Counted from the first letter of the stretch, positions 1,767 through 40,306 are shown. The stretch: DNA of 57,138 nucleotides from Polyangiales bacterium (GCA_046351535.1 JAXLYG010000023.1:128001-185138); one strand, 5' to 3'. Program-made: numbers and translations. The notes: generated from the sequence alone by a model not told the origin.

Positions 1767-1784
1767 GGTGGTCCGTCCTCCTGA

Positions 1785-4700
1785 TCAGCGCGTCACGACG
1801 GGCTCGATGCGAACCCAGGTGTCATTGAACGAAGCGCTCCCGCCGATGGGGTCCTGGAGCGTGACGTCTCCCGAGAAGTCGTCGAGGCGCATCACGGGGT
1901 TGGCCGTGATGCCCGCGCCGCGCGAGGGATCGAAGGCCGTCGCGCGTCCCGCGACGGTGTGCGCCTTCGCGCCGCCCTCCCAGTGACCGAAGCCGGTGGA
2001 GACGGCCACGACCCCGGGGCGCAGGCCCTTGATGACCTTCGCGAAGCCCACGACGCCGACGGGGTTCGACGCCGAGGTGATGCGCACGCGGTCGCCGGTC
2101 TCGACCCCCGCGGTGCGCGCGTCGGGCTCCGAGAGCTCGACGAAGTTCTTGGGCTGGATGCCCATGAGCCACGGGCTCGTGTGCGTTCGCGACTCGGCGT
2201 GCAGCGCGGGCGTGTACGTCACGAGCTGGAGCGGGAAGGCCGCGTCTCGCACGGGCGTCCCGTCGAGGTGGCGCTTCACGTCGTAGTGCGCGACGCCGCG
2301 GTACTTGCGACCCGTCACCGGGTTCACCGTCGTCGCGAGCTTCGGGACGTAGAAGTGCAGCACCGAGCCGTGCTTGTTGTTGAGCAGCGCGGCGTTGGTG
2401 GTGTCGTAGCCGCTGTTGAGCGCCGCGAAGGCGCCGCCGCGCGCCATGATGTCGCCCGCCGCGACGGTGGCGCCGTTGAGGGCCGTGCCCACGTTGCGCG
2501 CGAGGTTGGCGAACTGGTGGCGGTAGAAGTCCCACGCGCGGTCGAGGTTCACGCCCGCGCCGAGCGCGTTGGCGCCCACGCCGGGGAAGGTCGGCGAGAT
2601 CGCCTTCGCGAGCCCGATGAGAATGTCACCGTGCATCTTCGTGTCGGGCAGGAGCGGCGTGTACGCGTTGCGCGCCGAGGGGTCGAAGCTCCAGCGCCCC
2701 GTGGCGCCCACGGTGGTGCCGTCGAAGGCGCCGACCACGGGCTGCTGAATGGGCGTCTGCTTCGTCGAGATGGCCGCGCTCTGCCCGGGGAATCCCCACG
2801 ATTCCAGGTACGTCGCGTCGGGGAGCACGTAGTCGGCCCACGTCGCGACCTCGCCGAACACGGGGCTGATCGAGACGAGCAGCGGCAGCGCGGTCTCGTT
2901 CGAGACCGTGCGCTCCCACACCGACTTGCCGCCGGGGACCGCGTAGGGCCAGTCGGTCCACGCGGTGATGAGCGCCTTGATCGCGTACGGATACCCCTGC
3001 GCGATCGACGGGACGAGCTCCTGATAGTTGCCCTTCGCCGCGAAGGGGAACCACTGCCTCGGCGCCGGATAGCCTCGGAAATACGACTTGTCCGCGGTGT
3101 AGTCCGCGCCCGCGCGATCGATCCTCGGCCCCACGGGCGTCACGCCGCCGGTGACCGCGGCCGTGTTCACGCCGCCCGTCGCGTTGACCTCGGCCCAGCC
3201 TCCGCCGCCGCGCGAGAGACCGCCCGCGTAGTCGACGTTGCCGATCATCCAGTTGAGCGCCATCACCGCGAGCTGCGTGTACGTGCCGTTGGTGTGCTGC
3301 ACGGCGCCGCGGTACGCCCACGCCGACGCGCGCCGCCCCGACGAGGTGAGCTCCGTCGCGAGCTGCGAGATCACCGCCGCGCTCACGCCCGCCGCCGTGG
3401 CGTACTGATCGAGCGTGTATTCGAAGACCGCCGCGCGGTAGATCGCGAAGGCCGACCTGCAACGGATGCCGTTGACGGTCACGTAGTCGGCGCCCGTGTC
3501 GACGGGCTCGAGGGTGCCCACGACGGCCGTCGCGGTGCCGCCCGTGGGCGCGTTGATCTGCACCTCGACGGGCACGCCATCGCTCGACCGGATGCACACG
3601 GGATGAGCGGGGTTGACCACGCCCGTGAGGCCCGCCTCGGCGGGCGCGAGGAGCTTGCCCTCGTTGGGGTGTCCCGCCTCGACGATGACGAGCCAGGTCG
3701 CGTCGGTGTAGCAGGGCTCGCTCGCCGCCGTGGCCGCGGCCTTGTTGGCGTTGCGGAGGAAGGCCACGTTGTGCCGCGCGCCAGCGATCATCGCGCGGGC
3801 GATGCCGAGCGCGAGGGCCGCGTCGCCGCCGGGCTTGATGGGCACCCAGAGGTCGGCCTTCGCGGCGCTGTTCGAGAAGCGCGGATCGACCACGACGATG
3901 CGGCCCATGCCGCCCGTGCGACGCGGGTCGCGCATGTCGGTGGTCTTGCGCGCGAGGGCGAGCATCGGCGGCGACGACTCGACGGGGTTGGCGCCGAAGA
4001 CGAGCATGTAGGCGGCGCGGTCCATGTCGGTCTTGAGCTCGCTCAGACCGGGGGTCCCGTTGACGTGCTCGTAGGTCGCGAGCTGCGTCCCGACCTGCGC
4101 GCTGCCCTCGATGATCGAGGCGTCGTCGATGTCGTAGTTGGCGGTGCCGTAGCCCGACCTGAAGATCCGCTCGGCGAGGGATTTGTCGACGCCGCGGCCG
4201 GGGCAGTAGACGAGCCCGTTGGCGATCTTGCCGAGGTCGGCGTTGGCGGGGTCGATGTCTCGCGTCACGCGCTCGGCGAAGGGGATGAGCGCGTTGATGC
4301 GCGCGGCGATCTCGGTGAAGGCCTGGTCCCAGGTGATGACCTCCCAGCGCCCCGAGCCGCGCGCGCCGGCGCGGCGGAGCGGGTGCTGGATGCGGTACGG
4401 GTCATAGAGCGTCTGCACGCCGGCCTGGCCGCGGGGGCAGAGGCGCCCGAACTCGTTGCGAGAGTCCGTCGGCGTGCGCGTGAACGCGAGGCGCTCGTCG
4501 TCGCCGCGGTTGTTGGGGTGATACGGGTTGCCGTCGATCTTCACGACCTGACCCGCGCGGAGCTTCGCCTTGATGCCGCAGCGGCTCGGGCAGATGCGAC
4601 AGGTCGAGTGGAGGTAGAGCACCTCGGCGTCGGAGCTCGGCGGATCGGGGTCGGCGAGCACCTCGCGCGCCTTGAGCACCACCGGCGTCGCGGCCGCGGC

Positions 4701-4790
4701 GGCGCAGAGGAGGCCCGCGGCCTTCATGAACTGTCTGCGGCTTACGCCGCCTTCCGGGGTGCCGGGGCCCGTGTTGTTCGATCCGTCCAT
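1785..4790 (-). CDS. molybdopterin (Mo-bisPGD) oxidoreductase catalytic subunit with TAT signal (TtrA/PsrA-like, about 1000 aa)
   Basis: The chosen ATG at 4790 gives MDGSNN...SRRQFMKAAGLLCAAAAA, a twin-arginine signal. It is followed by the N-terminal FeS motif CRICPSRC...C. The long ORF has molybdopterin oxidoreductase character, and the upstream in-frame extension to 4949 is Arg/Thr-rich junk. Confidence 0.8.
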   Translation of the reverse strand: MDGSNNTGPGTPEGGVSRRQFMKAAGLLCAAAAATPVVLKAREVLADPDPPSSDAEVLYLHSTCRICPSRCGIKAKLRAGQVVKIDGNPYHPNNRGDDERLAFTRTPTDSRNEFGRLCPRGQAGVQTLYDPYRIQHPLRRAGARGSGRWEVITWDQAFTEIAARINALIPFAERVTRDIDPANADLGKIANGLVYCPGRGVDKSLAERIFRSGYGTANYDIDDASIIEGSAQVGTQLATYEHVNGTPGLSELKTDMDRAAYMLVFGANPVESSPPMLALARKTTDMRDPRRTGGMGRIVVVDPRFSNSAAKADLWVPIKPGGDAALALGIARAMIAGARHNVAFLRNANKAAATAASEPCYTDATWLVIVEAGHPNEGKLLAPAEAGLTGVVNPAHPVCIRSSDGVPVEVQINAPTGGTATAVVGTLEPVDTGADYVTVNGIRCRSAFAIYRAAVFEYTLDQYATAAGVSAAVISQLATELTSSGRRASAWAYRGAVQHTNGTYTQLAVMALNWMIGNVDYAGGLSRGGGGWAEVNATGGVNTAAVTGGVTPVGPRIDRAGADYTADKSYFRGYPAPRQWFPFAAKGNYQELVPSIAQGYPYAIKALITAWTDWPYAVPGGKSVWERTVSNETALPLLVSISPVFGEVATWADYVLPDATYLESWGFPGQSAAISTKQTPIQQPVVGAFDGTTVGATGRWSFDPSARNAYTPLLPDTKMHGDILIGLAKAISPTFPGVGANALGAGVNLDRAWDFYRHQFANLARNVGTALNGATVAAGDIMARGGAFAALNSGYDTTNAALLNNKHGSVLHFYVPKLATTVNPVTGRKYRGVAHYDVKRHLDGTPVRDAAFPLQLVTYTPALHAESRTHTSPWLMGIQPKNFVELSEPDARTAGVETGDRVRITSASNPVGVVGFAKVIKGLRPGVVAVSTGFGHWEGGAKAHTVAGRATAFDPSRGAGITANPVMRLDDFSGDVTLQDPIGGSASFNDTWVRIEPVVTR

Positions 4791-4818
4791 CTCGATTGCT
4801 CCGTTACCCACTGTGCTC

Positions 4819-5418
4819 TCAAGGGAGGTAGTAGTCCCAGCGCCCGTCGCGGTGGCATCCCGCGCAGTACTGCGTCGGCACCTGTCGCCGCAGGCCCGCC
4901 GCCGAGTGATCGCCGCTGAAGTCGACGCCGCCGCGGTGGCAGAACGCACAGTCCTCGTTGCGGGGCGTGCCTCGCCAGGTGCCCAGGTAGGGCAGCATCC
5001 GGCGGTGGATCTCCTGCACCCTGGGGTCGAGGGTGGTGCGATTGAGGATGTCCTGGTGACAGTGGAGGCAGTTGGCGTTGTAGCGGGTCGACTCGGGGTT
5101 GTGGATCGCCGTGAGGTTCAGCAGCGACACGTCGAGGCTCGGATGACAGCTCTGGCAGACCGCGCGCGGATCGGGCCTGCCCGCGTCATCGAGGACGACC
5201 GCGTCGGGCGACACATCGGGCGTCGCGCCGTCGGGCGTGTCGGTGGGGGTCACCGCGTCGGCGGGCACATCGACCGATGAATCGAGACCGGGCCCCGCGG
5301 GCCCACGCGGACCGGGAGGTCCCGCAGGTCCGACCGGCCCCTCACACCCGGCGAACATCGCCACCGCCAGAGGGAGCACGAGAATGACAAACTCCCTCTT
5401 CGAGCAAGCACCGGGCAT
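4819..5418 (-). CDS. tetraheme c-type cytochrome lipoprotein with collagen-like Gly-Pro linker
   Basis: Four CxxCH motifs: CQSCH, CLHCH, CAFCH and CAGCH. Signal peptide with lipobox (LAVAMFAGC) from the internal ATG at 5418, followed by GPAGPPGPRGPAGPG. It sits immediately upstream of the Mo enzyme genes on the same strand. Confidence 0.75.
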   Translation of the reverse strand: MPGACSKREFVILVLPLAVAMFAGCEGPVGPAGPPGPRGPAGPGLDSSVDVPADAVTPTDTPDGATPDVSPDAVVLDDAGRPDPRAVCQSCHPSLDVSLLNLTAIHNPESTRYNANCLHCHQDILNRTTLDPRVQEIHRRMLPYLGTWRGTPRNEDCAFCHRGGVDFSGDHSAAGLRRQVPTQYCAGCHRDGRWDYYLP

Positions 5419-5662: not shown

Positions 5663-6724
5663 ATGAGGTTCGATCCGTCACGCGCCCGTGAGCGCGTCGA
5701 GAAATTCTGGTCGCTCAACGCCGAGTTCGGCCTGGAGCACAACGCCTATCGCGTCTACCTGAACGAGATCGTGAGCGACCGCTACGTGCTCGTGAACGGG
5801 CTCCAGCTCCTGCGCGACGAGCTCCAGCTCGCGGGCGAGCGCGACCTCGGCGACGACGTGATCGCGTGCGGCGCCGACCTCTCGATCCCCAGCGTGATGA
5901 CCACGCTGGCGCACACCAACTGCGGCGACCGCATCCACCAGGGCGAGGCGACGACCTCGTACGAGCAGGTCGTGGCGTCGCGCTTCGCCTGCATGTCCGA
6001 GATCGGCGAGCACAAGCTCGAGGCCTTCTCGCCCACGGGCGGCGGCACCGACGACGGCCACACGCTCGCGCACGTCACCGTGGCGCACGCCCTCGACGCG
6101 CCCATCCGCAAGCGGCTCTACGAGGGCAACGCGTCGACCTTCGTGCTCGTCAACATCGACCTCAAGACCCACGTGGGGCGCCTCGACGGCGAGAACGGCA
6201 AGCTCATCATCGGCCGCACGCAGGAGTCGAAGTGGCGCGAGCCCCGCACCGCGTGTGGCGCCGTCGTCGGGACCGTCAAGCACTACAACCCCGACAACGG
6301 CGTGCACCGGCGCATCCGCGAAGACCTCGGCGAGGCGAACTTCGAGCTCCTCTCGACGAAGGGCGTCCACAGCAAGGACGGCGTCGACATCACCGCCGCC
6401 GTGGCCGCGTCGATCGTCGCGATCCAGGGGATGCTCAACACCGCGAAGGCCCTCGAGACCGAGCTCGACGAGCGCGGCGTCGGGCACCTCACGGCCTCGA
6501 CCACCGTGAACCGCCCCCACATGGACGACACGATCATCTACCTCGCGCGCGCCACCGTGTTCAACGGCGAGACCCGCGTGCAGGGCTTCGGCACCGACGC
6601 CTCGAAGTACTCGGGGCGCACCGTGGAGCACCGCGGCGACAAGCGCCTCCTGCTCCTCTACGACCGCCTCGACTCGGGTGAGCACGAGATCCGGTCGAGC
6701 ACCTACGCGCCGCGTCCGGCCTGA
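5663..6724 (+). CDS. hypothetical cytoplasmic protein (353 aa)
   Basis: Long ORF with balanced amino-acid composition (W, F, Y, H, K, N all present). Strong SD GAGGTG 7 nt before the ATG. I recognise no domain. Confidence 0.5.
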   Translation: MRFDPSRARERVEKFWSLNAEFGLEHNAYRVYLNEIVSDRYVLVNGLQLLRDELQLAGERDLGDDVIACGADLSIPSVMTTLAHTNCGDRIHQGEATTSYEQVVASRFACMSEIGEHKLEAFSPTGGGTDDGHTLAHVTVAHALDAPIRKRLYEGNASTFVLVNIDLKTHVGRLDGENGKLIIGRTQESKWREPRTACGAVVGTVKHYNPDNGVHRRIREDLGEANFELLSTKGVHSKDGVDITAAVAASIVAIQGMLNTAKALETELDERGVGHLTASTTVNRPHMDDTIIYLARATVFNGETRVQGFGTDASKYSGRTVEHRGDKRLLLLYDRLDSGEHEIRSSTYAPRPA

Positions 6725-6735: not shown

Positions 6736-7842
6736 CTACGCGCCCCACGCGTCGCGCATCAGCACGCGCTCGAGCTTGGCCACGGCGGGCTCCAGCGACT
6801 CGGGGTCGAGGCCGCCGGAGCGCGCCACGGCGGTGAGCAGAAAGCGCTGCTCGCCCGCGCTGAAGATCCGGTGCGCGATCACGCGTCCGCCGAGGTCGAG
6901 CACGCGCACGCCGACGGGCGCGGGCTCGCCGTTCTCGACCACGCGATCGGCCACGATGAGGAGCTGCGACCAGACGCCCGCCAGCACGTCGGGTCGCTCG
7001 GAGCCGTCGCTCGCCGCCAGCGGCAGCCCCGAGTCATCGCTCAGCACCAGCGCGCTCAGGCTGCCCGCGGTCGCGATCGCGTTGAGGAGCCGCGGGAGCT
7101 CGTCGCGCGTCCCGCGGCCGAGGTCGATGTGCTGGATGGCCTGCGCCACGCGCTCTTTTTCGAGGAGCGGCGAGAGGATCCGCTCGACCTCGCGCAGGTC
7201 GCTGCGCCCCGTCTCTCGCACCTGCGCCACCGTCGCAGCGAGGCGCTTGAGCTCGCTCTGCGTCTGCGCGCTGAGCGCGTCGGAGCGCTTCACCTGCCCC
7301 ATCGCGGCGTTGAGCTCGGCCTCGGCGAAGGCGAGCCTGTCGCGCAGCTCGCGCACCTGCTTGAGCTCGCCCTGCGCCTGCGCGTTGAGCGCGTCGGCCC
7401 GCTGGAGCTGCGTCCGCACCGACTCGAGCTCGGCCTCGGCCCGCGCGACGCGCTCTCGGAGCTCCTGCGCGCGATCGGCCTGCGACCGCGCGGCCTCGAC
7501 CTCGGCCTCGGCCCGCGCGACGCGCTCTCGGAGCTCCTGCGCCTCGCGGCGCGCGCCGCCCTGCTCGGTCTCGAACTCTCGCGTGCGCCCGTGGACGCGC
7601 TCGAGCTCCGCCATCGCGAGCCCCGCGTTGACGGCCTCGCGCTTCGTGGCCTCCTGCGCCTCGGCGAGGGCGGCCTCGAGGCGCTGCGCGTCGGCGCGCG
7701 CGTGGCCCCGATCGGACTGGGCTGCCGAGAGCTCGGCGCGTAGCGCGTCGCGGGCCTCGAGGGCGCGACGGACGCCGACCATGTAACCGCCGAGCAGGAA
7801 GAGCCCGCACGCAAGCGCGACAAGAGTGAGTGAGAGAATCAC
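6736..7842 (-). CDS. membrane-anchored coiled-coil protein with internal repeats and roadblock/LC7-like C-terminal region
   Basis: N-terminal TM helix (ILSLTLVALACGLFLLGGYMVGV). Long Ala/Glu/Arg coiled coil with repeated ELRERVARAEAE modules; an imperfect DNA direct repeat (one mismatch over about 60 bp) lies in 7425..7550. C-terminal 130 aa (ALVLSDDSGLPLAAS...VRVLDLGGRVIAHRIF) resembles a roadblock fold. Last gene of a tightly packed minus-strand operon. Confidence 0.6.
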   Translation of the reverse strand: MILSLTLVALACGLFLLGGYMVGVRRALEARDALRAELSAAQSDRGHARADAQRLEAALAEAQEATKREAVNAGLAMAELERVHGRTREFETEQGGARREAQELRERVARAEAEVEAARSQADRAQELRERVARAEAELESVRTQLQRADALNAQAQGELKQVRELRDRLAFAEAELNAAMGQVKRSDALSAQTQSELKRLAATVAQVRETGRSDLREVERILSPLLEKERVAQAIQHIDLGRGTRDELPRLLNAIATAGSLSALVLSDDSGLPLAASDGSERPDVLAGVWSQLLIVADRVVENGEPAPVGVRVLDLGGRVIAHRIFSAGEQRFLLTAVARSGGLDPESLEPAVAKLERVLMRDAWGA

Positions 7843-8630
7843 GGGTCGACGACCTCCTCGGAGACACCTGCACAGGGCGCGACACCGCGCACGCGGACCT
7901 CGACCCGTCGAAGCGCGTCGGAGTCCTCCGCGCCCTCGACCTCCGCCGTGAACGCGCCCACGCCGCCGACGGTCACCTTCGTCGCGGGAACGCCCGCGCG
8001 ACGGATCGAGACCGCCACCGCCGCCGCGCGACGGACGCTGAGCGCGTGGTTGTCACGGTCGGTCCCGAGGGGGTCGGCGTAGCCGAGCACGAGCACGTTC
8101 GCGCGAGGGTTTCGCGCGAGGTATTCCCGCAGCGGGACGAAGTGAACCGCGAGCCTCGGCGGCGTCGACCACGACCCTCGACGAAAGCGAATCGACCACC
8201 GCGGCGGACATCGCGGATCGATGGGCCCCGAAGGCGCCGCGTCCGCCGACGCTACGAACGCGTGCGCCGTCGCGGGCGCCTCAGCGACCGTCGCGCTCGC
8301 GCCACCCGCGTCGACCGTCGCCACCGCGGGCGCGCCCGGCGACGCGGCGTCGGGCGACGTCGACGGCGCCGGCGCGGCAGGCTCCGCGGTCGTCGGAGAC
8401 GCGGGCGTCGGAGGCGCGGTCGTCGAAGACGCGATCGACGGCGCGGTCGTCGGTGGCGGCGCGACGGGCGCCGTGACGCGGAGCGCGGGCGGCGCGGGTT
8501 CGGCCCGTTGCGCGGCGGGAAACTGAAGCGCGCCGGTGACCGCGAGGCCCGTCGCCACGACGAAGATCGCGACGGTGACGCCGGGCGGCGTTCGCTCCCA
8601 CGGGAGCGAGTGGTGGAGCGCGGCGGTCAT
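7839..8630 (-). CDS. OmpA/MotB-like peptidoglycan-binding protein with N-terminal TM helix and Pro/Ala/Thr-rich linker
   Basis: The internal ATG at 8630 overlaps the stop of the upstream regulator gene (ATGA). TM helix VTVAIFVVATGLAVTGAL, then a PT-rich linker. C-terminus NVLVLGYADPLGTDRDNHALSVRRAAAV is an OmpA_C-like motif. The upstream part of the 462-aa ORF is a shadow frame. Confidence 0.65.
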   Translation of the reverse strand: MTAALHHSLPWERTPPGVTVAIFVVATGLAVTGALQFPAAQRAEPAPPALRVTAPVAPPPTTAPSIASSTTAPPTPASPTTAEPAAPAPSTSPDAASPGAPAVATVDAGGASATVAEAPATAHAFVASADAAPSGPIDPRCPPRWSIRFRRGSWSTPPRLAVHFVPLREYLARNPRANVLVLGYADPLGTDRDNHALSVRRAAAVAVSIRRAGVPATKVTVGGVGAFTAEVEGAEDSDALRRVEVRVRGVAPCAGVSEEVVDP

Positions 8631-9709
8631 GTTCCGAATCCCATCGTGCGGAGCCTCGCGAGGTTGGCCGTCAGGCTCGGCGACGCGCCCACGCGGCTCG
8701 CAGCCTCGAAGGCCTCGTAGGCGTCCTGGTAGCGTCGATCGAGGAGCGCCTCGACGCCCTTCGCGTAGAGCACTTCGAAGCTCAGCGAGCGCGTGGCCGA
8801 GGGCGGCGCCTGCTCGGGCGCGATGGCGCGCGGCGCGGGCGTGATGGGCCTGGACCCCGGCGTCTCTCGGAGCATCGGCCCGGGCTCGACGGTGCGCGGG
8901 GTGACGGGCTTCGGCGGCGCGGGCTCGGACTGAATCGGATACGGCATCGGACGCGCGGGCGTCGGGCGCGAGGGCGCCGGCCTCGACTGCGGGGGCCGCG
9001 AACCGACCACGCGACCGAGCTCCGCGAAGGCGAACTCCTCGCCCTCGCCCTGGACCTTGACCTCGTCTTGACGGCGGAGGCTGTCGAGGAGGAGCGCCTC
9101 GCAGCTCCCCGTGAGCGTGCGCGGGATCTCGACCCCCATGGGGTGGGCGCCGACGGTGACCCCGGTGGCCGCGACGAGCCGCGAGAAGGCCTCGACGCCC
9201 TGCCCGCCCTCGTCGCGCGCGTGCCACGCCTCGCCGCGGTGGATCACCACCTCGCCGAGCTGCTTGCCGTCGCGCGAGACGTCGAGCCGCACGGACCGTC
9301 GGCCCATGCTCGCGAGCTGGATGTAGTCCGCGAGGGTGAAGGGCGCGGCGACGTCGCGGAGCCCGAGCTGCTCGACGACGACCTCGCGGAGGTTGGCGAG
9401 CGCGACGGGCTTCTCGAGCACCACGATCCCGGGGCGCTGCGGCACCTTGAAGCGCCGCAGGTACGCCGACGCGATGACGATGGGGACGCGCGCGCCGATG
9501 CGGTCGAGCTCCGCGATGACCTCAAGGCCCGAGCGATCGGGGAGGTTCAGGTCGGTGATGAGGAGCTGCGGCACCGTCGCGCTGATGATGGCGTTGGCCT
9601 CGTCGACGGAGCCCGCCGCGAGCACCGACACACCGCTGAGCTTCGAGAGCCCGCGCACCATCGAGGCGCGCAGCATCGGCTCATCTTCGACGACGAGGAC
9701 GGTGGGCAT
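8627..9709 (-). CDS. response regulator: receiver domain + DUF4388 (PilZ-like) + Pro-rich linker + short helical C-terminus
   Basis: Receiver with LVVEDEP, ITDLNLPD and KPV. The middle region FTLADYIQLASMGRRSVRLDVSRDGKQLGEVVI matches DUF4388. A proline-rich segment follows. Confidence 0.75.
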   Translation of the reverse strand: MPTVLVVEDEPMLRASMVRGLSKLSGVSVLAAGSVDEANAIISATVPQLLITDLNLPDRSGLEVIAELDRIGARVPIVIASAYLRRFKVPQRPGIVVLEKPVALANLREVVVEQLGLRDVAAPFTLADYIQLASMGRRSVRLDVSRDGKQLGEVVIHRGEAWHARDEGGQGVEAFSRLVAATGVTVGAHPMGVEIPRTLTGSCEALLLDSLRRQDEVKVQGEGEEFAFAELGRVVGSRPPQSRPAPSRPTPARPMPYPIQSEPAPPKPVTPRTVEPGPMLRETPGSRPITPAPRAIAPEQAPPSATRSLSFEVLYAKGVEALLDRRYQDAYEAFEAASRVGASPSLTANLARLRTMGFGT

Positions 9710-9716
9710 CAGCGTT

Positions 9717-10481
9717 TCACTCGGGGATCTCGATGGGGTCGGTCATGAGGTCGGTGCCGCAGGGCAGCGCGTCGGCCCAGTCGATGAAGCGCTTGACCAG
9801 CGCGCGCCCGCGGAACATCGCCCCGTGCTGCGGCGCGATGATCTCGATGTCGAGGCGACGGGCGGCCGCGGCCCAGCGCTTCATCGCAGCGTTGTTGGCC
9901 ATGTACCGCCGGTGAAAACCCTCCATGAACTGGAGGTGCGCGTCGAAGTCGGCGACCTCGACGGCCTCGGTCCCCACGGAGGCCCCGAGGTCACCCGAGT
10001 AGAGGACCTTCGAAGTCGGGTCATAGACCTGGAAGTTGCCCGGCGAGTGGAGGAAGTGCGCGGGCAGGATGACGAGCTTCGCGCCGCCGAGCATGAGCAC
10101 CATGCCCTTGTCGGGGATGGGCTTGAGGCGCTCGACCACGAGGTGATCGAGGCCGAAGTGGGGCACGAAGCGGGTCCACAGGGCCGAGATGTACGCGTCG
10201 GCGTCGGTGGTCATGAGCCAGCCGTTGGAGGCCGCCACGATGTCGGGGTCCTGATGCGAGAGGAAGATGTACTTCAGCTTCGCGCTCTGGAGCTGCTGGC
10301 TCGTGGCCGCGAGGACGCGCGAATAGACCTTGTGCCCGCCGGGGTCGAGGATCATCCCCTCGCTGCCGTGGATGATGAGGTGCTGGTTGGCCTGCACGGC
10401 CACGCCGCCCGCGCTGAAGTCGGGCAGGAGGAGGTTGCGATGGGCTCCGCTGGCGTAGAGCGTGGTGACTTGATTCGACAT
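9717..10481 (-). CDS. MBL-fold metallo-hydrolase / ODP-like di-metal protein
   Basis: FLSHQDPD metal-binding motif and H/D ligands through the sequence; 254 aa. Lies between the roadblock gene and the response regulator with gaps of 8 to 25 nt. Confidence 0.7.
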   Translation of the reverse strand: MSNQVTTLYASGAHRNLLLPDFSAGGVAVQANQHLIIHGSEGMILDPGGHKVYSRVLAATSQQLQSAKLKYIFLSHQDPDIVAASNGWLMTTDADAYISALWTRFVPHFGLDHLVVERLKPIPDKGMVLMLGGAKLVILPAHFLHSPGNFQVYDPTSKVLYSGDLGASVGTEAVEVADFDAHLQFMEGFHRRYMANNAAMKRWAAAARRLDIEIIAPQHGAMFRGRALVKRFIDWADALPCGTDLMTDPIEIPE

Positions 10482-10505
10482 GGTCGGTTGCCTCTTCGCC
10501 CTCTC

Positions 10506-10871
10506 TCAGAGCACCTTGCGGACGTCTTCGATGGCGCGCCGCACATCGAGGAACAGCAGGCCCAGCTTGGCGCTCTTGCTCGCGAGCGCGAGGAGCAGCG
10601 TGCCCGAGCTCGAGCTCATCATCACGGCGTAGCCCTCGGTGCCGCGGACGAGCACCTCCTGCACGTCGCCGCGCGAGAGCTCCGTCGCGGCGCGCGTGCC
10701 GAGCGAGAGGAGCGTCGCGCTCATGGCGCCGACGCGGGCCTCGTCGACGTGCTGCGGCAGCGCGCTCGCGATGATGAGCCCGTCCTCCGAGATGAGCGCG
10801 CAGGCCTCGACGTCGGGCGACGAGCTCTGCAGCGAGCGCAGGATCCGGTTCAGTTGATCGACTCTCGACAT
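10506..10871 (-). CDS. roadblock/LC7 (MglB-like) domain protein
   Basis: 121 aa from the internal ATG at 10871: MSRVDQLNRILRSLQSSSPDVEACALISEDGLIIAS...GYAVMM...LLLALASKSAKLGLLFLDVRRA, the classic roadblock pattern. It starts 5 nt after the kinase stop. Confidence 0.7.
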   Translation of the reverse strand: MSRVDQLNRILRSLQSSSPDVEACALISEDGLIIASALPQHVDEARVGAMSATLLSLGTRAATELSRGDVQEVLVRGTEGYAVMMSSSSGTLLLALASKSAKLGLLFLDVRRAIEDVRKVL

Positions 10872-10875
10872 GACT

Positions 10876-11901
10876 TCAATCTCTCGGGGGAACGAGGGGA
10901 ATTCGCACGAGCACGGTGGTCCCCACTCCCGGCTCACTGGTGATCGTAAGGCTGCCCTGACCTCGCTCGGCGAGCTGTCGGCAGATCGCGAGCCCGATCC
11001 CCGAGCCGTTGGGCTTGCTCGTGTAGAAGAGCTCGGTGCAGCGCTCGAGCTCGTCGGGCGACATCCCCCGCCCCGTGTCGAGCACCGAGAGTTCGAACGC
11101 GTCTTCCTTCACGCCCGCCGAGACCACGACCTGATCGCCGGGCCTGCACGCGTCGATGGCGTTCCGCACGAGGTTGAACACCACGCCCTTGACCGCGGCG
11201 CGGTCGAGCAGGAGCAGCGGCATCGCCTCGACGGCGATCCGGAGCGACACGCCCACGGCGCGCGCGCTCGACGCGAGCACCTTGCAGGCCTCCTCGACGG
11301 CGCTGTCGATGGCCTCGGGCGTGATGCCGTGCACGACCTGGTTGAGCCCGCCGATGCCCTGGAGCCCGAGCCCCAGCCGACGCAGCTCCCAGAGCACCGC
11401 GTGGAGGTCTTGCTGGAGCCCGTCGGGCGCCTCTTCGACCAGCACCTCGAGCGTGGTGGTCACCGCGGCGAGCGGGTTTCGAAGCTCGTGCAGCAGCGAC
11501 GGGAGCACCTCTCCCACCACCGCGAGCTGAAGGAGCCTGTCGCGCTGCGTGCGGATCTCCTGCACGCCGTCGATCTGCTGATAGAGCACCGCGGTGAGGT
11601 CTTCGCCGTCGGCGCTCTTCCACCCCGACAGGGAGTACCCCAGGGTCCGCCGTCGGCCCGACGCCTCCGTGAGCGAGAGCTCGCCGCGCCGCTCGCGATT
11701 GCGAACGCCCTCGCGGAGCTGCTCCATCGGCGCGAGCAGCGCGCTCACGGGCATCCCTTCGAGCCCGTCGCCCGCGGGGCCGTGGAACGTGCTCGCGAAG
11801 CGATTCGCGTAGCGAACGATCCCGGCCGCGTCGACCACGACGACGCCCGCAGGCATGTGCTCCATCGCCTGTTGGGCGATCGGTGATGACCGGGTCTCCA
11901 T
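10876..11901 (-). CDS. PAS-domain sensor histidine kinase (cytoplasmic)
   Basis: ATG at 11901 (METRSSPIAQQAMEHMPAGVVVVDAAGIVRYAN..., a PAS fold). H-box LHELRNPLAAV, N-box NLVRNAIDA, G1 DTGRGM, G2 GSGIGLAI. The upstream 100 codons of the long ORF overlap the divergent gene and look non-coding. Confidence 0.75.
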   Translation of the reverse strand: METRSSPIAQQAMEHMPAGVVVVDAAGIVRYANRFASTFHGPAGDGLEGMPVSALLAPMEQLREGVRNRERRGELSLTEASGRRRTLGYSLSGWKSADGEDLTAVLYQQIDGVQEIRTQRDRLLQLAVVGEVLPSLLHELRNPLAAVTTTLEVLVEEAPDGLQQDLHAVLWELRRLGLGLQGIGGLNQVVHGITPEAIDSAVEEACKVLASSARAVGVSLRIAVEAMPLLLLDRAAVKGVVFNLVRNAIDACRPGDQVVVSAGVKEDAFELSVLDTGRGMSPDELERCTELFYTSKPNGSGIGLAICRQLAERGQGSLTITSEPGVGTTVLVRIPLVPPRD

Positions 11902-12196
11902 CCGAGGTGTTCGCGGGTTGAACGCTCGAAGAAAAATCGCAGAGCGACGGTTTCTGCAACGCCTGTGCGCAGCGCCGATCCGCGCCGTGATCGAGCGATT
12001 CTTCGGACGTACCGGGGAATTCTCTCCGCGGGGGGTCATCGTTGACGAGGTGCCGACGAACGTCGTTCTCGCGCGCGAACCGGATGCGTCTGCGTCGAGG
12101 CTTCGATGTGCGCGCGTCGCAGGATCGCAGCGCGAGAACCCGCGAAAAGCGCGAGGACGAACCCCCGACGGCACGTCGCGAGCACCCACCGGGGTC

Positions 12197-13666
12197 ATGT
12201 TGCCCGCACGCGAACCCGAGGCGACGGCGCTGCCTCCTGGCTGGCGTCGTCACGATGACCGCTGGAACGGCTTCGCCTTCGATCTCCCGCCCGCGTGGCG
12301 CGTGGTGATCGACGGGGCGAAGGTCTACGCCTTCGACGACGCCGACGACGCGGTGCTCTTCTGGCCCCGCGCCACGCACGGCGACGCGTCGCTCGCGTCG
12401 ATCACCGACGACGTGGTGCGCGAGCTCGCCGCGGGAGACTCAACCTTCGAAGCCTGGGGCGCGCCCGCCGGAGGGCGCTCGCAGACCGTGATGTTCCGTC
12501 GCGCGAGCCGCGCGGGCGCGCCGCTTCGTGGCGTGTTGCGCGTCGAGCGTCACGGGCCCGAGGCCGTGCTGGTGCGTGGCTTTCAGACCCGCGCCGAGCG
12601 TCAGGCCGAGATGCGCCCCACGATCGAGCGCGTCGCGCGGAGCTTCACGCCGGTGCCCGCGCCGAGGCGACAGCGCACCGTCGACCCGAGCGAGGGCGCG
12701 TGGAGCGTCGAGCACCCCGAGGGGTGGCGCGTCACGGGCGGCGTCGACCGCGCGAGGGCGCAGGGCGGAGGCATCATCGTGTGGCGCGTCGAAGACCCGC
12801 GCAGCGGCGCGAGCGTGGGCAACGACGGCACGATCATCCCCATGCAGGAGCCCGCGATGGGCGGCTGGATGAGCGCCATGATGGGCTTCGCCGCGCCGGG
12901 GATGGGCTGGAACGCGCGCCCCTTCTGCGACGCCGCGACCTGCGCGCGCGAGGTGCTTCTGCCGCTCGTTCGACAGCAGCGGCCCGACATCGTGATCGAG
13001 CAGACCGCGACCGACGCCGAGGTCGAGCGCATCACCCGCGCGCAGATGGAGGAGCCCGCGCGCAGGCTCGGCGGCGTCGCGGAGGTGAGCACCTGCCTCG
13101 CCTACACGCGCTACACCGAGGGCGGCGTCGCGTGGCGCGAGTGCGCGATCGTCGTCGCGTGGCGCGTGGTCCCGTCGGGCTTTCACATGGGCGGACCGAC
13201 GGCGCCCGCGGGGAGCTGGTTCATCTCCGTGGGGCCCGTGATGCGCGCGCCCGCGGCGCAGTTCGAAGCGACGCTCCCGATCCTCGCGGCCGTCGCGCGG
13301 TCGTTTCACGCCGACGCGGGGTGGGAGCACCGCGAGATGGATCGCGCGGGCCAGCGCATGGTCGCGGACCGCATGCGCGCCGAGGCCGAGCGCGCGAAGA
13401 TCCTCCGCGACACGATGGACTACATCCACAAGGTCGACGCCGAGATCGTGGCGCACCGGCAGGCCACGAACGCCGAGATCAGCCGCATCGGATACAACAC
13501 CGTGATGGGCAAGGAGGACGTGCTCGATTCCGACGGGTACTCCTACAAGGTCGACACGGGCTACGACACGTACTGGACGCGCGACGACCGCATCCTCGGG
13601 TCGAACTCCAGCGACCTCGACGCGCACCTCGAGAGCGACGGCTGGCACAAGATGAAGATCTTCTGA
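12197..13666 (+). CDS. hypothetical protein (489 aa)
   Basis: Real-looking composition from ATG 12197 (MLPAREPEATALPPGWRRHDDRWNGFAF...), rich in W/F/Y/H. I recognise no domain. The upstream part of the ORF overlaps the divergent kinase start. Confidence 0.45.
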   Translation: MLPAREPEATALPPGWRRHDDRWNGFAFDLPPAWRVVIDGAKVYAFDDADDAVLFWPRATHGDASLASITDDVVRELAAGDSTFEAWGAPAGGRSQTVMFRRASRAGAPLRGVLRVERHGPEAVLVRGFQTRAERQAEMRPTIERVARSFTPVPAPRRQRTVDPSEGAWSVEHPEGWRVTGGVDRARAQGGGIIVWRVEDPRSGASVGNDGTIIPMQEPAMGGWMSAMMGFAAPGMGWNARPFCDAATCAREVLLPLVRQQRPDIVIEQTATDAEVERITRAQMEEPARRLGGVAEVSTCLAYTRYTEGGVAWRECAIVVAWRVVPSGFHMGGPTAPAGSWFISVGPVMRAPAAQFEATLPILAAVARSFHADAGWEHREMDRAGQRMVADRMRAEAERAKILRDTMDYIHKVDAEIVAHRQATNAEISRIGYNTVMGKEDVLDSDGYSYKVDTGYDTYWTRDDRILGSNSSDLDAHLESDGWHKMKIF

Positions 13667-15303: not shown

Positions 15304-16164
15304 ATGGCGCGCAACGGAACGCTGGTCACCGACGTCCCACCGTATCGACGTCTCGCGGCGATGCTCTTCACGCGCCGCAACGAGTCCGCGGTCTACTTCG
15401 AAGAGGCGATCGACGTCACCGACACGCTCCCGTGGATCGAGCGCTGGAACGCCGAGGGGCGCCCGCGCATGACGCTCTTCATCCTCTCGCTGCACGCGCT
15501 CGCGAAGACGCTGCACGCGCACCCGCGCATGAACCGCTTCATCGCCGCGGGGCGGCTCTACCAGCGCGACGGCGTGTGGCTGTCGTTCACGGCGAAGCGC
15601 TCGATGGAGCCCGCCGCGCCCCTCGTCGTGGTCAAGCGCCGCTTCGAAGCGAACGAGACGCTCGAAGACCTCGCGCGCTCGATGGACGCGCGGATCCGGG
15701 ACGTGCGCGCGCACGGCGACAGCCACGCGGACCGCGAGTTCGATCTGCTCCTGAAGGTCCCGCACCCGATCCTGAGGAGGCTGCTGGCGCTGGCGCCGTG
15801 GGCCGACGCGATGGGGCTCCTCCCCTCGTCGTTCACGCGCAACGACCCCTTCTTCGCGAGCTGCTTCATCAGCAACCTCGGCAGCGTCGGGGGCAACGCG
15901 GCGTGGCACCACCTCTACGAGTACGGCGACATCCCCCTCTTCGGCATGCTCGGGCGCACGGCCGAGGAGGTCGTGGCGCGCGAGGGCAAGGCCGTCGTTC
16001 GGACCCTGGCGCGGGTGCGCTTCACCTTCGATGAGCGCATCGAAGACGGCTTCAACGCCGTGCGCGCGGTCACGTATTTCCGCTGGCTGATGGAGCGCCC
16101 CGAGCGGCTCGTCGAGGGCGGCGGGGCCCTCACGGACGGAGCGCCACCCGCGTCGAAAGGCTGA
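15304..16164 (+). CDS. stand-alone 2-oxoacid dehydrogenase acyltransferase (E2) catalytic-domain-like protein
   Basis: ATG at 15304. LHALAKTLHAHPRMN, SNLGSVGG and the ...DERIEDGFNAVRAV (DHRxxDG-like) region resemble the E2 catalytic core. No lipoyl or E3-binding domains are present. Confidence 0.55.
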   Translation: MARNGTLVTDVPPYRRLAAMLFTRRNESAVYFEEAIDVTDTLPWIERWNAEGRPRMTLFILSLHALAKTLHAHPRMNRFIAAGRLYQRDGVWLSFTAKRSMEPAAPLVVVKRRFEANETLEDLARSMDARIRDVRAHGDSHADREFDLLLKVPHPILRRLLALAPWADAMGLLPSSFTRNDPFFASCFISNLGSVGGNAAWHHLYEYGDIPLFGMLGRTAEEVVAREGKAVVRTLARVRFTFDERIEDGFNAVRAVTYFRWLMERPERLVEGGGALTDGAPPASKG

Positions 16165-16783
16165 ACCCGTCGCGCCCGAGGTCGTGGAACTCGGCCTCGA
16201 GCGCGGCGAAATCGACGACCATCACGCAGGGGTCGTGGGGGCGGTAGAGCGTCCCCGCGTTGAGCACCGTGAGGTGATCGAAGCGGCGGACCATGCGCGT
16301 GTGCGTGTGGCCGCCGAGCATCCAGCGCACGTCGCCCGCGCCGTGGAGGCGCCAGAGCGCGGTGTTGTTCTCGAGGCCGTAGCCGTAGTCGTCGGGCTTG
16401 AGGCAGGCCATGTCGTCGCGGCCGATGCCGTGGCAGAGCAGCGCGGGGCCCGCGTCGGTCTCGAAGGCCCACGTCTCGGGGAGCCCTGCCAGAAAGGCGT
16501 TGGCGCGCTCGGACACGGCTTCGAAGCGCGTCCACTCGGGCACGAAGCGCTCGCCGCCCGCGAGGAACCACCGCTCGTGGTTGCCCCGCACGCAGACGAC
16601 CCCGCGCGCCTGGAGGAGCTCGCAGGTGCGCTCGGCGTCGCCGGGCCCGTCGACGATGTCGCCGACGCAGAGCACGGCGTCGAGCGACATCGCGTCGAAG
16701 TGGCGCAGCGCGAGGTCGAGGGAGGCGTCTTCGGTGTGGACGTCACCGATCACACCGACGCGACGGAGGGTTCTCTGTGACAC
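16130..16783 (-). CDS. calcineurin-like metallophosphoesterase
   Basis: Motifs GDVH, GDIVD, GNHE and GHTH. 217 aa. Its 3' end overlaps the convergent E2-like gene by 35 nt. Confidence 0.75.
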   Translation of the reverse strand: MSQRTLRRVGVIGDVHTEDASLDLALRHFDAMSLDAVLCVGDIVDGPGDAERTCELLQARGVVCVRGNHERWFLAGGERFVPEWTRFEAVSERANAFLAGLPETWAFETDAGPALLCHGIGRDDMACLKPDDYGYGLENNTALWRLHGAGDVRWMLGGHTHTRMVRRFDHLTVLNAGTLYRPHDPCVMVVDFAALEAEFHDLGRDGFSLSTRVALRP

Positions 16784-16816
16784 GCGGGGAGCGTATCGGA
16801 GGGAGCGGAAGCGGCG

Positions 16817-18859
16817 CTATCCCCTCGCGTCGGCGAGGGCCTTGCGACGGATGGCGACCACGCGCTCGGACTCCTTGGGGTCGACCTCGCGCATGTGATC
16901 GACGGCCCAGGTGAAGGTGCCGACGCCCTGCGTGACCGTGCGGAGCTCGGTGGCGAGCTCGCGGAGCTCGGCCTGGGGAACGAGCGCCTGGACGACGTCC
17001 CAGCCCTTCGTCTGCGGGTGCTGGTCGAAGCCGAGGAGCTGACCGCCGCGGCGCCCCGTCACGATGCGCTGCACGCGCGGCGTGAACTCGCTCGGCGTCG
17101 TGACGTGGAGCGCGAGCACGGGCTCGAGGAGCACCGGGTCGGCCTTGGGCATCGCCTCGGTGAGCGCCACGCGCGTGGCCTGCTGAAAGGCCATGTCGGA
17201 GCTGTCGACGGCGTGGTAGCTGCCGTGCGTGAGGACGACCTTCACGTCGACCACGGGGTAGCCGAGGGGGCCCTGCTTGAAGTACTCGCGCGAGCCCTTC
17301 TCCACCGAGGAGAAGTACTGCTTGGGCACCGCGCCGCCGGTCACGGTCTCGTCGAAGGCGAAGCCCTCGCCGCGGCCCATGGGGACGATGTCGATGAACA
17401 CGTCACCGAAGGCGCCGTGGCCGCCGCTCTGGTGCTTGAAGCGCCCGTGCTGCGAGACCTTCTTGCGCACGGTCTCGCGGTAGGGGACCTGCGGCGCCTC
17501 GGCGCGCACCTCGAGGCCGAAGCGGGCCTTGAGGCGGTCGAGGGCGAGGCGCAGGTGCTTGTCGCCCTGGCCCCAGAGGATGAGCTCGTGGGCCTCGGCG
17601 CTCTGCTCGACGCGGAGGCTCGGGTCTTCTTCGGTGATCTTGCCGAGGGCGCCCGAGAGCTTCACGTCGTCGCCCGCGCGCATGGGCTTGAGCGACAGCG
17701 CCACGAGGGGCTGCAGCGCGTCGACCCAGGGGAGCGCGACCATGTCCGACTCGCTCGCGCCCTGCCCCGTGTGGAGGGCGTCGAGGTGACCGAGCGCCAC
17801 GACCTCGCCCGCGCCGGCCTTCTGCACCTTGATCTGCTTGGAGCCCAGGAGCTTGTAGAGGCCCGAGACGCGGTCCTTGCCGAGGGTCATCCCGTCGGTG
17901 ACCTCGCCGCGCCAGACGCGCGCGTAGCTGAGCTTGCCGACGTGCTGTGCGTGGACGGTCTTGAAGCTCTGGACCAGCGTGTCGGCCACGGGGAGCGCGG
18001 CGCGAGAGGCCGACTCGTGGGCCTCGGGGGCCTCGTGGCGCAGGGCCTTGAGGAGGCGCCGCACGCCGTTGTCCTGCTCGGCGGAGCCGAAGAACACGTC
18101 GACGATGAGGTCCTGCTTGAGGTCGTTGCGGAGGCTCGCGTAGACCTCCTCCGGCGGCGGGTTCACGTCGTCGAGGAGCTCGGCGAGGAGGTGGTCGTCG
18201 AGGTCGGCGAGGTGCTCGAGCATCACGCGCCGCGCCTCGTGCTCCTCGGGCAGCACGGCCTCGGGGAGCTGCGCGATGGCGGCGTCTTCGTGGCCCTTGA
18301 AGCCGTACGCGCGCTCGCTCACGAGGTCGACGAAGCCCGTCACGTTCTGCCCGTCACGGAGCGGGAGCTCGCGCATGACGAGGGGCCGCGCGCTGAGCGC
18401 CTGGAGCGCCGAGAGCGTCTCCTTGAGCTTCACCGCGGAGCCCGGGACGTCGACCTTGTTCACGAACACCACGTGCGGGATCTTCCGCTCGTCGAGGAGG
18501 CTCAGCAGGGGCGAGACCGCCGCCGCGCGCGACGGGTCGGCGTCGACCACCACCACGGCCACGTCCGCCACGAGGAGCCCGTGCATCGACTCCTGCCAGA
18601 ACTCCGAGGAGCCCGGGCAATCGATGAAGGTCCATCGCTCTCCCTCGTACTCCGCGCTCGCGACCGCGAGCTCGGCGCCGACGCCGCGGCTCTTCGCGTC
18701 CGAGGCAAGGTCACCGAGGGTGCTGTGGTCCTTCGCGCTGCCCTTCTTCGCGAGCGCGCCGCACGAGAGCAGCAGCGCCTCGAGCAGCGAGGTCTTTCCA
18801 GTCATCGACGGCCCCACCAGGGCCGCCACGCGCGGTGCGCGCAGGGTCTTTCCTTCCAC
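16817..18859 (-). CDS. elongation factor G-like GTPase (EF-G paralogue)
   Basis: G1 GPSMTGKTS, DCPG, NKVD, and domains II-V with EF-G-like sequence to the C-terminus. The GTG start at 18859 is my choice; the ATG at 18967 adds a non-EF-G-like leader. Confidence 0.75.
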   Translation of the reverse strand: MEGKTLRAPRVAALVGPSMTGKTSLLEALLLSCGALAKKGSAKDHSTLGDLASDAKSRGVGAELAVASAEYEGERWTFIDCPGSSEFWQESMHGLLVADVAVVVVDADPSRAAAVSPLLSLLDERKIPHVVFVNKVDVPGSAVKLKETLSALQALSARPLVMRELPLRDGQNVTGFVDLVSERAYGFKGHEDAAIAQLPEAVLPEEHEARRVMLEHLADLDDHLLAELLDDVNPPPEEVYASLRNDLKQDLIVDVFFGSAEQDNGVRRLLKALRHEAPEAHESASRAALPVADTLVQSFKTVHAQHVGKLSYARVWRGEVTDGMTLGKDRVSGLYKLLGSKQIKVQKAGAGEVVALGHLDALHTGQGASESDMVALPWVDALQPLVALSLKPMRAGDDVKLSGALGKITEEDPSLRVEQSAEAHELILWGQGDKHLRLALDRLKARFGLEVRAEAPQVPYRETVRKKVSQHGRFKHQSGGHGAFGDVFIDIVPMGRGEGFAFDETVTGGAVPKQYFSSVEKGSREYFKQGPLGYPVVDVKVVLTHGSYHAVDSSDMAFQQATRVALTEAMPKADPVLLEPVLALHVTTPSEFTPRVQRIVTGRRGGQLLGFDQHPQTKGWDVVQALVPQAELRELATELRTVTQGVGTFTWAVDHMREVDPKESERVVAIRRKALADARG

Positions 18860-19037
18860 GTCTTCCTCCAACGAAACGGACGTTTCGTGGGCGCGCTCCG
18901 CTGCAAGTACGGTGCGCACGCACTGCGGCCGTAGAAGCGCCCACATCGCCGCCCATCTCGCGCACATTCATCGCAGGCGTTCGTGCGGCGGGTCAAGCGG
19001 TGCGCGGCCCCCGCGAGGGTTTCCGTCTGCCCCAAGT

Positions 19038-19077: not shown

Positions 19078-19125
19078 GTGTGATAGCCACGGAGGCCCAC
19101 CCGCGCGTCGCCGCGCACGAGCCCG

Positions 19126-23591: not shown

Positions 23592-23773
23592 GCGAGAGAT
23601 CTCCCAGTGGGGTCACGTTGTCGCAGAGCGCCCTCGCGGGTGTCCAGCAGCACGGAATCGGAACGCTCTCGCAGCCGCGGGACATGGGCGTCCGAGGGGG
23701 AAATCACCGTTGACTTTCGATGTATTCTGATGTAGGCGTCGCGCCCGTCGAGAGACAAGAATCGAGGACGACG

Positions 23774-24748: not shown

Positions 24749-24934
24749 CCGGCGCCTGTCGACGACCGTCGACACCTGTCGCGCCGCGACCTCACCCCGT
24801 CGACCGCCGCGCCCCTGCGAACAAAGCGAATTCCGTCTGGCTGCGCGCGTGCATCGCCGCGCCCTGGCCGCGGTACGCTTGCCGCGTCCTCGCAGACGAG
24901 CGCTGCCCCCACCCCACACCCCGACGCCAGCCCC

Positions 24935-40304: not shown

Positions 40305-40306
40305 GG

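Follow-up and report, generated by a model that had tools for sequence, protein, structure and literature searches.

A six-gene signaling operon combining roadblock proteins with an ODP-family di-iron protein in a Polyangiales genome

Five described signaling systems come close to the locus that we report here, and each of them shares one or two features with it and fails at least one defining feature. In the actinobacterial conservon, a kinase gene (cvnA) is followed directly by a Roadblock/LC7 gene (cvnB) in a tightly packed operon that also encodes a DUF742 protein (CvnC) and an MglA-type GTPase (CvnD), with the roadblock protein acting as an adaptor between kinase and switch protein. Roadblock-fold proteins are also components of the MglA/MglB(/MglC) module, which works with RomR/RomX; MglB homologs have been classed as "coupled" when an MglA-family GTPase is encoded within about four genes, and the same survey counted 328 orphan MglB homologs, none of them characterized as of 2014, and mentioned an association between MglB and PATAN proteins only in passing (Wuichet and Sogaard-Andersen 2014, PMC4316618). 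In group 1 Rup GTPase neighborhoods, genes for a coiled-coil protein and a kinase-type output stand together with one for an inner-membrane protein that ends in an OmpA domain (PMC4316618). ODP is a chemotaxis oxygen sensor genetically coupled to a sensor-less receptor (PMC7666581), and cyanobacterial PatA-type regulators (PatA, PixG, PixE) combine a receiver (REC) domain with PATAN/DUF4388. We analyzed a stretch of 57,138 nucleotides (nt) from a Polyangiales bacterium (GCA_046351535.1, JAXLYG010000023.1:128001-185138), hereafter the window, and describe a minus-strand operon of six genes, G1 to G6, at 6736-11901. It is organized around a Roadblock/LC7 (Robl) gene followed by an ODP gene. An initial sequence-only reading had singled it out as an undescribed system, and this agrees with the open-access literature that we searched, in which no paper links ODP to roadblock proteins or describes the cluster; subscription journals may.

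Genes were called by GC content at third codon positions (GC3) because the window has about 72% G+C. The six genes are all co-directional and fill the interval with coding-type GC3 values of 0.86-0.95 (Table 1). Their junctions measure +4 (G1/G2), +24 (G2/G3), +7 (G3/G4), -4 (G4/G5) and -4 nt (G5/G6), and these short gaps and two 4-nt overlaps bear out the tight spacing, co-transcription and translational coupling that the sequence-only reading had claimed. It had also taken both overlaps for ATGA. This is correct for 8627-8630 (G4 stop/G5 start), whereas 7839-7842 (G5 stop/G6 start) reads GTGA because the start codon of G6 is GTG. A consensus scan, which is uninformative at 72% GC, gave no terminator-like site between the genes or after G6 and no sigma-70 promoter match, its single hit being 11936-11948, 5' of G1. 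A Pfam search of each product left all six of the original domain assignments standing.

Table 1. Features of the six-gene operon and of the region upstream of it, in window coordinates
Feature	Position	Strand	Length	Description
G1	10876-11901	-	341 aa	Soluble PAS histidine kinase
G2	10506-10871	-	121 aa	Stand-alone Roadblock/LC7 protein
G3	9717-10481	-	254 aa	ODP-family di-iron protein, metallo-beta-lactamase fold
G4	8627-9709	-	360 aa	Response regulator, REC-PATAN
G5	7839-8630	-	263 aa	Predicted bitopic inner-membrane protein, OmpA-like
G6	6736-7842	-	368 aa	Predicted single-pass membrane protein, coiled coil and roadblock-fold domain
Roadblock-fold domain of G6 (modeled)	6742-7107	-		Residues about 246-367
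Probable divergent promoter region 5' of G1	11902-12196			From GC3

Comparison with related loci changes the reading of this operon. We compared 82 loci, 80 of which are the ODP loci closest to G3 among at least 554 found; these 80 were taken from contigs representing one genome per species, their genes were classed by tblastn and iterated hidden Markov models, and the taxa given here are record titles, many of them labels of metagenome-assembled genomes (MAGs). A Robl gene lies directly upstream of the ODP gene in 81 of the 82 loci, and the set shares no further conserved family: no methyl-accepting chemotaxis protein (MCP) or Che family is conserved, and no small GTPase is linked in any locus. 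The invariant core is thus Robl plus ODP, usually accompanied by a second, divergent roadblock protein. Because no linked small GTPase occurs anywhere in the set, the locus is neither a conservon nor an MglAB module.

G2, the core roadblock protein, begins 4 nt past the G1 stop codon and matches Pfam Robl_LC7 with 56 bits (E 2.4e-15). Among solved structures its best relatives are a Thorarchaeota roadblock protein (7f8m, E 1.2e-27) and CvnB5 (3leq, E 2.9e-9). The similarity to the Asgard protein (Thorarchaeota SMTZ1-45) is striking and extends over the full length, placing G2 nearer to 7f8m than to the MglB or CvnB structures. Homologs of G2 are mostly 58-99% identical across loci labeled as several phyla, and those in gammaproteobacterial loci that carry only the core are divergent (36-40%). 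In class I (see below) the first roadblock often forms the C-terminal part of a larger protein. At least 10 proteobacterial loci fuse it to a STAND-like P-loop NTPase (AAA_22/AAA_16) that has a Walker A motif, and these fusion proteins of 450-630 amino acids (aa) are encoded upstream of ODP in L008, L011, L015, L018, L023, L025, L026, L031, L055, L087 and L088; a REC-Robl fusion is present instead in L063 and, weakly, in L040. A kinase gene adjoins the Robl gene in 26 of the 82 loci. These NTPase and REC fusions, together with the kinase adjacency, suggest that Robl may act as an adaptor.

The match between G2 and CvnB5 and the position of its gene directly after a kinase gene in a tightly packed operon are conservon-like. 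However, Pfam found no DUF742 in the six proteins, and with the 82-locus survey this confirms the absence of a conservon-type GTPase and a DUF742 gene noted at the outset. The kinase itself also differs. G1 is a soluble, PAS-type enzyme with no hydrophobic segment in a hydropathy analysis (maximum KD19 1.53), hence no transmembrane (TM) helix, and no HAMP domain in the Pfam search; LPxR is not conserved at the C-termini of 22 G1-homologous kinases; a cognate response regulator is present; and the conserved roadblock partner is a di-iron ODP. We rejected conservon membership on these grounds: a GTPase and a DUF742 protein are missing, and the kinase has neither LPxR nor HAMP. The operon had been likened to a conservon with replaced parts, and that description gives way to one of a Robl-ODP core carrying two separable modules, beside a kinase without conservon features.

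The second roadblock domain lies at the C-terminus of G6. No Pfam family scored above threshold in G6, but below threshold Robl_LC7 was matched in 82 of 107 members of the G6 family and LAMTOR5 in 65 of 107. Profile alignment by hhalign placed the G6 C-terminus in register with the G2 family over 103 columns (25% probability, P 7.7e-4). This was suggestive and not decisive, so the fold was settled by structure prediction: an AlphaFold2 model built from the 107-sequence alignment (pLDDT 91, pTM 0.83) has the topology alpha-beta-beta-alpha-beta-beta-beta-alpha and is structurally closest to Myxococcus xanthus MglB, at a sequence identity of only about 10%. The G6 C-terminus is thus modeled as a roadblock fold, and together these lines of evidence uphold the roadblock-like tail that had been suspected there. 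The G6 family is small: a search of 1.84 billion proteins gave 378 representatives at 50% identity, of which 171 reach E <= 1e-30. It is without Pfam annotation; JGI labels a few members "Roadblock/LC7/MglB family." It was reached through an alignment of domains cut from related loci. A search with full-length G6 was dominated by its low-complexity coiled coil and returned 13 clusters only, and a search with the C-terminal domain by itself, restricted by its word index, reached no further than 8 close relatives.

Two roadblock-fold proteins in one operon invite comparison with MglB/MglC, and the operon might accordingly be a polarity module. Both roadblocks would then act as regulators or scaffolds of a Ras-like GTPase whose gene lies at another place in the genome, and the operon, with input from ODP and the two-component pair, would determine cell polarity or the direction of motility. 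Roadblock proteins are well known as platforms for GTPases, G2 is a genuine member of Robl_LC7, the G6 domain is closest to MglB in structure, and the host belongs to the Myxococcota, a phylum that has MglA. The proximity of MglB homologs to PATAN proteins has also been noted before (PMC4316618). Nevertheless, we regard this explanation as unlikely. No MglA-family GTPase, at the "coupled" distance or beyond it, was found in the 57-kb window or in the related loci, and the only GTPase in the window is a paralog of EF-G. The strictly conserved partner of the roadblock protein is ODP and not a GTPase; the attached NTPase, where present, is an AAA_22-type P-loop domain fused to Robl; and the core module is common in loci labeled Bradyrhizobium, Nitrosomonas, Dechloromonas and Competibacter. 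In contrast to MglB and MglC, the second roadblock here has an OmpA-like protein as its partner and is predicted to be held at the membrane by a TM helix and coiled coil.

The conserved partner, G3, matches Pfam ODP (PF19583) with 234.4 bits against a cut-off of 27.2 (E 1.4e-69), and Lactamase_B was also matched. Alignments to the solved ODPs of Treponema denticola and Thermotoga maritima are essentially full length (6qrq/6qwo, E 3.5e-68, residues 8-247; 6qnm/6r9n, E 1.1e-63), and the motifs H76-Q-D78-P-D80, H142-F-L-H145, S-G-D164 and P-Q-H219 are matched in both. The probable metal ligands among these residues are assigned by precedent from the family. An exact-sequence look-up of G3 returned no record. 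In both the characterized chemosensors and the window, ODP stands beside a histidine-kinase pathway. However, coupling in the characterized ODPs is to CheA and to a chemoreceptor that is cytoplasmic and sensor-less (PMC7666581), whereas here the partner is a roadblock protein, joined in Myxococcota by a HisKA-type kinase, with no conserved che genes.

G3 is probably an O2/Fe(II) sensor, judging by its family and metal-site motifs, and we propose O2/Fe(II) as the signal because this di-iron protein is the only recognizable sensor of the operon. For the same reason, the mechanosensing role suggested in the sequence-only reading finds no support. Work by Muok and colleagues in 2019 reportedly found that ODP binds O2 as a stable peroxo adduct, destabilizes phospho-CheA and so acts on the kinase. 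G3 could instead be an enzyme, a flavodiiron-related scavenger of O2, NO or peroxide, with the other genes regulating or localizing this protection at the envelope. The ODP fold and metal site are indeed related to those of flavodiiron NO/O2 reductases, as weak matches to flavorubredoxin and the A-type flavoproteins 2q9u and 4fek indicate. We give this idea little credence, as G3 over its full length matches the sensor ODPs (E 1e-68) far better than it does the reductases (E 1e-4), has no flavodoxin or other electron-entry domain, and sits among signaling proteins with no reductase partner conserved nearby.

The loci fall into five classes according to what accompanies the core. Class I (about 43 loci) has the order Robl-ODP-OmpA-G6-type with no kinase or regulator and is found in alpha-, beta- and gammaproteobacteria (Bradyrhizobium, Nitrosomonas, Dechloromonas, Competibacter, Defluviicoccus and others), with single loci labeled Deltaproteobacteria (L072), Acidimicrobiales (L084) and plain metagenome (L014). 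Class II (about 12 loci, mostly Myxococcota including Archangium) has kinase-Robl-ODP-REC/PATAN with no OmpA or membrane G6. Class III is the six-gene form of the window, L003, L010 (Labilithrix), L012, L069 and L076, with variants that are truncated (L001, L006), lack the kinase (L033) or are rearranged (L021). Class IV has Robl-ODP only, mostly in gammaproteobacteria, and class V has Robl-ODP-G6-type with or without a REC-less PATAN protein (L039, L054, L048, L065). Contigs labeled Myxococcota bacterium are the closest relatives (L006, ODP identity 95%). The complete six-gene order is kept in L003-L005, where the flanks are unrelated and G6 is only 40% identical, as well as in L010, L012, L069 and L076. 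Gene order is thus conserved in this neighborhood comparison, and because the same order recurs with different flanking genes the arrangement is not due to chance.

Since the kinase and REC-PATAN regulator on the one hand and the OmpA and G6-type proteins on the other each occur separately with Robl-ODP, the window operon is a union of two modules around this core. The kinase and REC-PATAN module is found mainly in loci labeled Myxococcota. A rough neighbor-joining tree of ODP intersperses classes II and III among Myxococcota and is too star-like to date fusions. In class II, two further genes are conserved after the regulator, encoding a ParA/MinD-like ATPase and a soluble protein. The latter has about 190 aa, and hhalign identifies its C-terminal part as a homolog of the roadblock domain in G6 (probability 90%, E 1.7e-6). 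The ATPase gene is followed by the soluble roadblock gene in L034, L036, L041, L042, L050, L062, L070, L079 and L082, and in a Phycisphaerales MAG (L044, 10662-12014) the two are fused into one 450-aa protein. In sister Myxococcota, therefore, a ParA-like ATPase and a soluble roadblock take the place of the OmpA-like protein and the membrane roadblock. This soluble homolog shows that classes I, II, III and V all include a second, G6-type roadblock as part of the system, which is linked in some to a wall/membrane anchor and in others to a positioning ATPase of the ParA type.

The same observations bear on whether the window simply holds two abutting operons, kinase-Robl-ODP-regulator and OmpA-G6, with no functional link. 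Each half is found without the other in some genomes, as this would predict. Even so, it seems very improbable: about 43 loci without kinase and regulator have the OmpA-G6 pair immediately behind Robl-ODP, which ties it to the shared core and not to an adjoining operon, the class II roadblock ties the second roadblock to the core, and the ATGA overlap of G4 and G5 leaves no space for a separate promoter. The absence of a terminator-like site between the genes points the same way, for what the scan is worth at this base composition.

G5 and G6 behave as a pair. OmpA-like and G6-like genes co-occur in 51 loci, and 31 of these, Bradyrhizobium sp. ORS 285 among them, have a 4-nt overlap between the stop codon of the OmpA gene and the start codon of the G6 gene. 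G5 matches Pfam OmpA (33.4 bits against a cut-off of 27.2) and begins with a short N-terminus and a TM helix predicted by hydropathy (residues 17-35), from which a linker rich in Pro, Ala and Thr leads to the OmpA-like domain (about residues 157-250). The arrangement suggests a bitopic protein with a cytoplasmic N-terminus and a periplasmic linker and OmpA-like domain. This domain contains the motifs G-Y-A-D186 and N194-x-x-L-S-x-R200-R201-A, whose conserved Asp and Arg residues presumably bind peptidoglycan, as they do in the family. Before the helix, G5 has an E-x-x-P motif, which corresponds to G-E-[DG]-x-P directly before the TM helix throughout the OmpA-like family. G6 has a hydropathy-predicted TM helix at residues 1-22, a juxtamembrane GGYxxGVRRA motif (AGYxxGxR...AR..LR in G6-type proteins generally) and a coiled coil at about residues 25-215. 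Basic residues after the N-terminal helix imply an N-out/C-in topology, which would leave the roadblock domain in the cytoplasm.

In the G6 alignment, the TM region and the C-terminal region of ~150 aa are conserved, and the coil varies from almost none, in proteins of about 210 aa, to about 170 residues. Tandem repeats with 15/27-bp units lie in the linker-coding DNA of G5 (8385-8471), and the DNA that encodes the G6 coil (7245-7542) holds tandem duplications with 114-bp and 72-bp units. These duplications within coding sequence fit rapid length change of the linker and the coil.

A role as an anti-phage defense system or as a MotAB/Tol-Pal-type envelope energy transducer, for which one might cite the STAND-like NTPase-Robl fusions of some relatives and the resemblance of the G5 OmpA domain to MotB/ZorB, is barely credible: PADLOC gave generic matches only (OmpA domain, coiled coil), all with E above 1e-6, the neighbors are housekeeping genes that differ between genomes, the G5 TM helix (GVTVAIFVVATGLAVTGAL) has no Asp or Glu, and no MotA/ExbB/TolQ-like multi-pass partner is present. 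On these grounds, and given that G6 is single-pass, we rejected both a defense system and a MotB/ExbD/TolR-type stator. The likeness to group 1 Rup neighborhoods, with their coiled-coil and inner-membrane OmpA proteins, is likewise limited, as those clusters are defined by the Rup GTPase and have no roadblock or ODP gene, and the window operon has no such GTPase.

The remaining two proteins form a two-component pair. Pfam assigned PAS_4/PAS_8, HisKA and HATPase_c to G1, with the PAS domain at residues 10-105, the H-box around His138 (HELRNP), the N-box at 243, DxGxG at 275 and GxGxGL at 299. G4 has a receiver domain (Response_reg, 53.8 bits; residues 4-109, with D9, D53, S81 and K100) and a DUF4388 domain, now named PatA_N/PATAN (residues 124-217; 29.9 bits, cut-off 25). 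Beyond these lie a Pro-rich linker (about 225-300) and a TPR-like tail (about 300-360). The tail is conserved in 24 loci; searched by itself against Pfam, it gave a weak TPR_2 match (E 0.025). Because the H, N, G1 and G2 boxes of the kinase and the acidic pocket, phospho-Asp, Ser and Lys of the receiver are all present, the G1-G4 phosphorelay looks functional. The combination of REC and PATAN is shared with cyanobacterial PatA-type regulators. In G4, however, the order is reversed, with REC before PATAN, the Pro-rich linker and TPR-like tail are additional, and the gene lies outside any chemotaxis-like operon, with no che genes nearby. The Synechocystis PATAN domain binds PilB1 of the pilus motor and localizes to the membrane (bioRxiv 10.1101/2021.06.11.447907), and by analogy the PATAN domain of G4 may be a protein-binding output.

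Taken together, we lean toward reading the operon as a spatially anchored two-component complex built on an ODP and roadblock core and probably responsive to O2/Fe(II). O2 bound at the di-iron site of G3 would shift its conformation or oligomeric state. G2, in a role modeled on the conservon CvnB-CvnA pairing, would be the adaptor that reads the state of ODP and relays it to the soluble kinase G1, which would autophosphorylate at His138 and in turn phosphorylate G4 on Asp53. Output would then come from the G4 PATAN domain, through binding to other proteins and not to DNA. G5 and G6, made in a fixed ratio, would form the anchor: G6 would hold the second roadblock in the cytoplasm on a coiled-coil stalk of variable length, and G5, inserted with the opposite topology, would tie the pair to peptidoglycan through its OmpA-like domain. 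If the roadblock head of G6 docks the soluble Robl-ODP complex, and perhaps the kinase with it, signaling would take place at a fixed site on the envelope. Across lineages, G2-like proteins would link ODP to whichever lineage-specific reader is present, be it a kinase, a fused receiver or a fused NTPase.

We have much less confidence in the output target and the exact contacts than in the model as a whole. The homologies, fold, motifs and gene linkage come directly from the analyses above, and the protein-protein contacts, the O2/Fe signal and the output target are inferred from them. The alternation between an envelope anchor and a ParA-like ATPase argues that localization is the function of the second roadblock, and only in this restricted sense could the polarity role that was first suggested be retained.

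Several considerations weigh against this model. The case for binding between Robl and ODP comes from gene linkage, and the kinase could be a direct target of ODP, as CheA is, in which case Robl would have another role. In class I, the kinase and regulator are missing from most proteobacterial loci, so there the core needs an output outside the model. The coiled coil probably makes G6 a homodimer, which complicates docking to G2; a G6 homodimer formed through the stalk is at least as likely as a G2-G6 heterodimer. G1 may contribute a further sensor, independent of ODP, in its PAS domain. Finally, the taxonomic breadth depends partly on fallible MAG labels, such as "Acidimicrobiales" for L084, and the comparison is confined to the nearest relatives of G3, 80 of at least 554 ODP loci.

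A more general and more speculative possibility is that roadblock proteins without a small GTPase are dedicated receptors for a di-iron gas or metal sensor, forming an ancient and widespread Robl-ODP-Robl2 module. The many orphan MglB homologs would thereby gain a new class of partner. The O2/Fe(II) status would then control the assembly or positioning of a complex at an envelope anchor or on a ParA-type ATPase, and the two-component, receiver and AAA+ NTPase parts would be lineage-specific readers plugged into it. We put this forward tentatively and think it somewhat doubtful as it stands.

The new element in the anchored two-component model would be roadblock-scaffolded signaling with a di-iron sensor in place of a GTPase. 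One clade of orphan MglB-like roadblocks, proteins that have no linked GTPase and number in the hundreds among bacteria, gains a concrete candidate partner in ODP, which is so far known only as a chemotaxis sensor in a spirochete and Thermotoga. If the model is true, a roadblock scaffold can work with a metalloprotein instead of a GTPase, and ODP signaling extends to classical two-component systems and, judging by the locus labels, to many bacteria of environmental importance (nitrifiers, polyphosphate- and glycogen-accumulating organisms, photosynthetic Bradyrhizobium, Myxococcota). The analysis also defines a family of predicted membrane-anchored roadblock proteins that was previously unannotated, and the exchange of a wall anchor for a ParA-like ATPase points to spatial control of O2 signaling.

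The genes flanking the operon in the window are unrelated to the module and are not conserved with it. Upstream, a gene of about 490 aa at 12197-13666 (+) has no family match and diverges from the operon. With an annotated-style start at 11855 this open reading frame would run into G1; by GC3 it begins near 12197, and since the plus frame has no coding-type GC3 until about 12215 the ATG at 12197 is most likely the first plausible start. The 295 nt between it and G1 would then be a divergent promoter region. On the other side, a 353-aa protein (5663-6724, +; GC3 0.97) with no Pfam or NCBIfam match converges on G6, with 11 nt between the stop codons; it is also found beside G6 in the close relatives L001 and L002 and not in L003. 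Beyond it, 1203-5117 (-) encodes a TAT-signal molybdopterin oxidoreductase of about 1110 aa with a 4Fe-4S dicluster subunit downstream. A similar oxidoreductase in L001 lies beside an ars cluster (ArsD/ArsA/ACR3/LMWP), which hints at arsenic respiration or oxidation. A GH5 glycosidase gene is also among the genes flanking the operon.

Further along the window, 16130-18967 (-) carries the EF-G-like translational GTPase paralog (16817-18967) and then a calcineurin-like metallophosphoesterase, and 19087-20481 (+) encodes a protein of about 460 aa with three PAS domains and no recognizable output domain. At 23714-26983 (+), neighboring genes for DUF6209 and DUF3604 (E 4.7e-163) proteins precede one for a PpiC-type rotamase. 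The region 32989-40421 (-) holds a kdp cluster for potassium uptake (KdpA, KdpB, KdpC) and, after it, the gene of an OmpL-like beta-barrel porin; its KdpD is a stand-alone N-terminal sensor and Usp protein without the kinase part, and downstream of the cluster are a REC protein (32036-33151) and a HAMP-PAS kinase (28853-30922).

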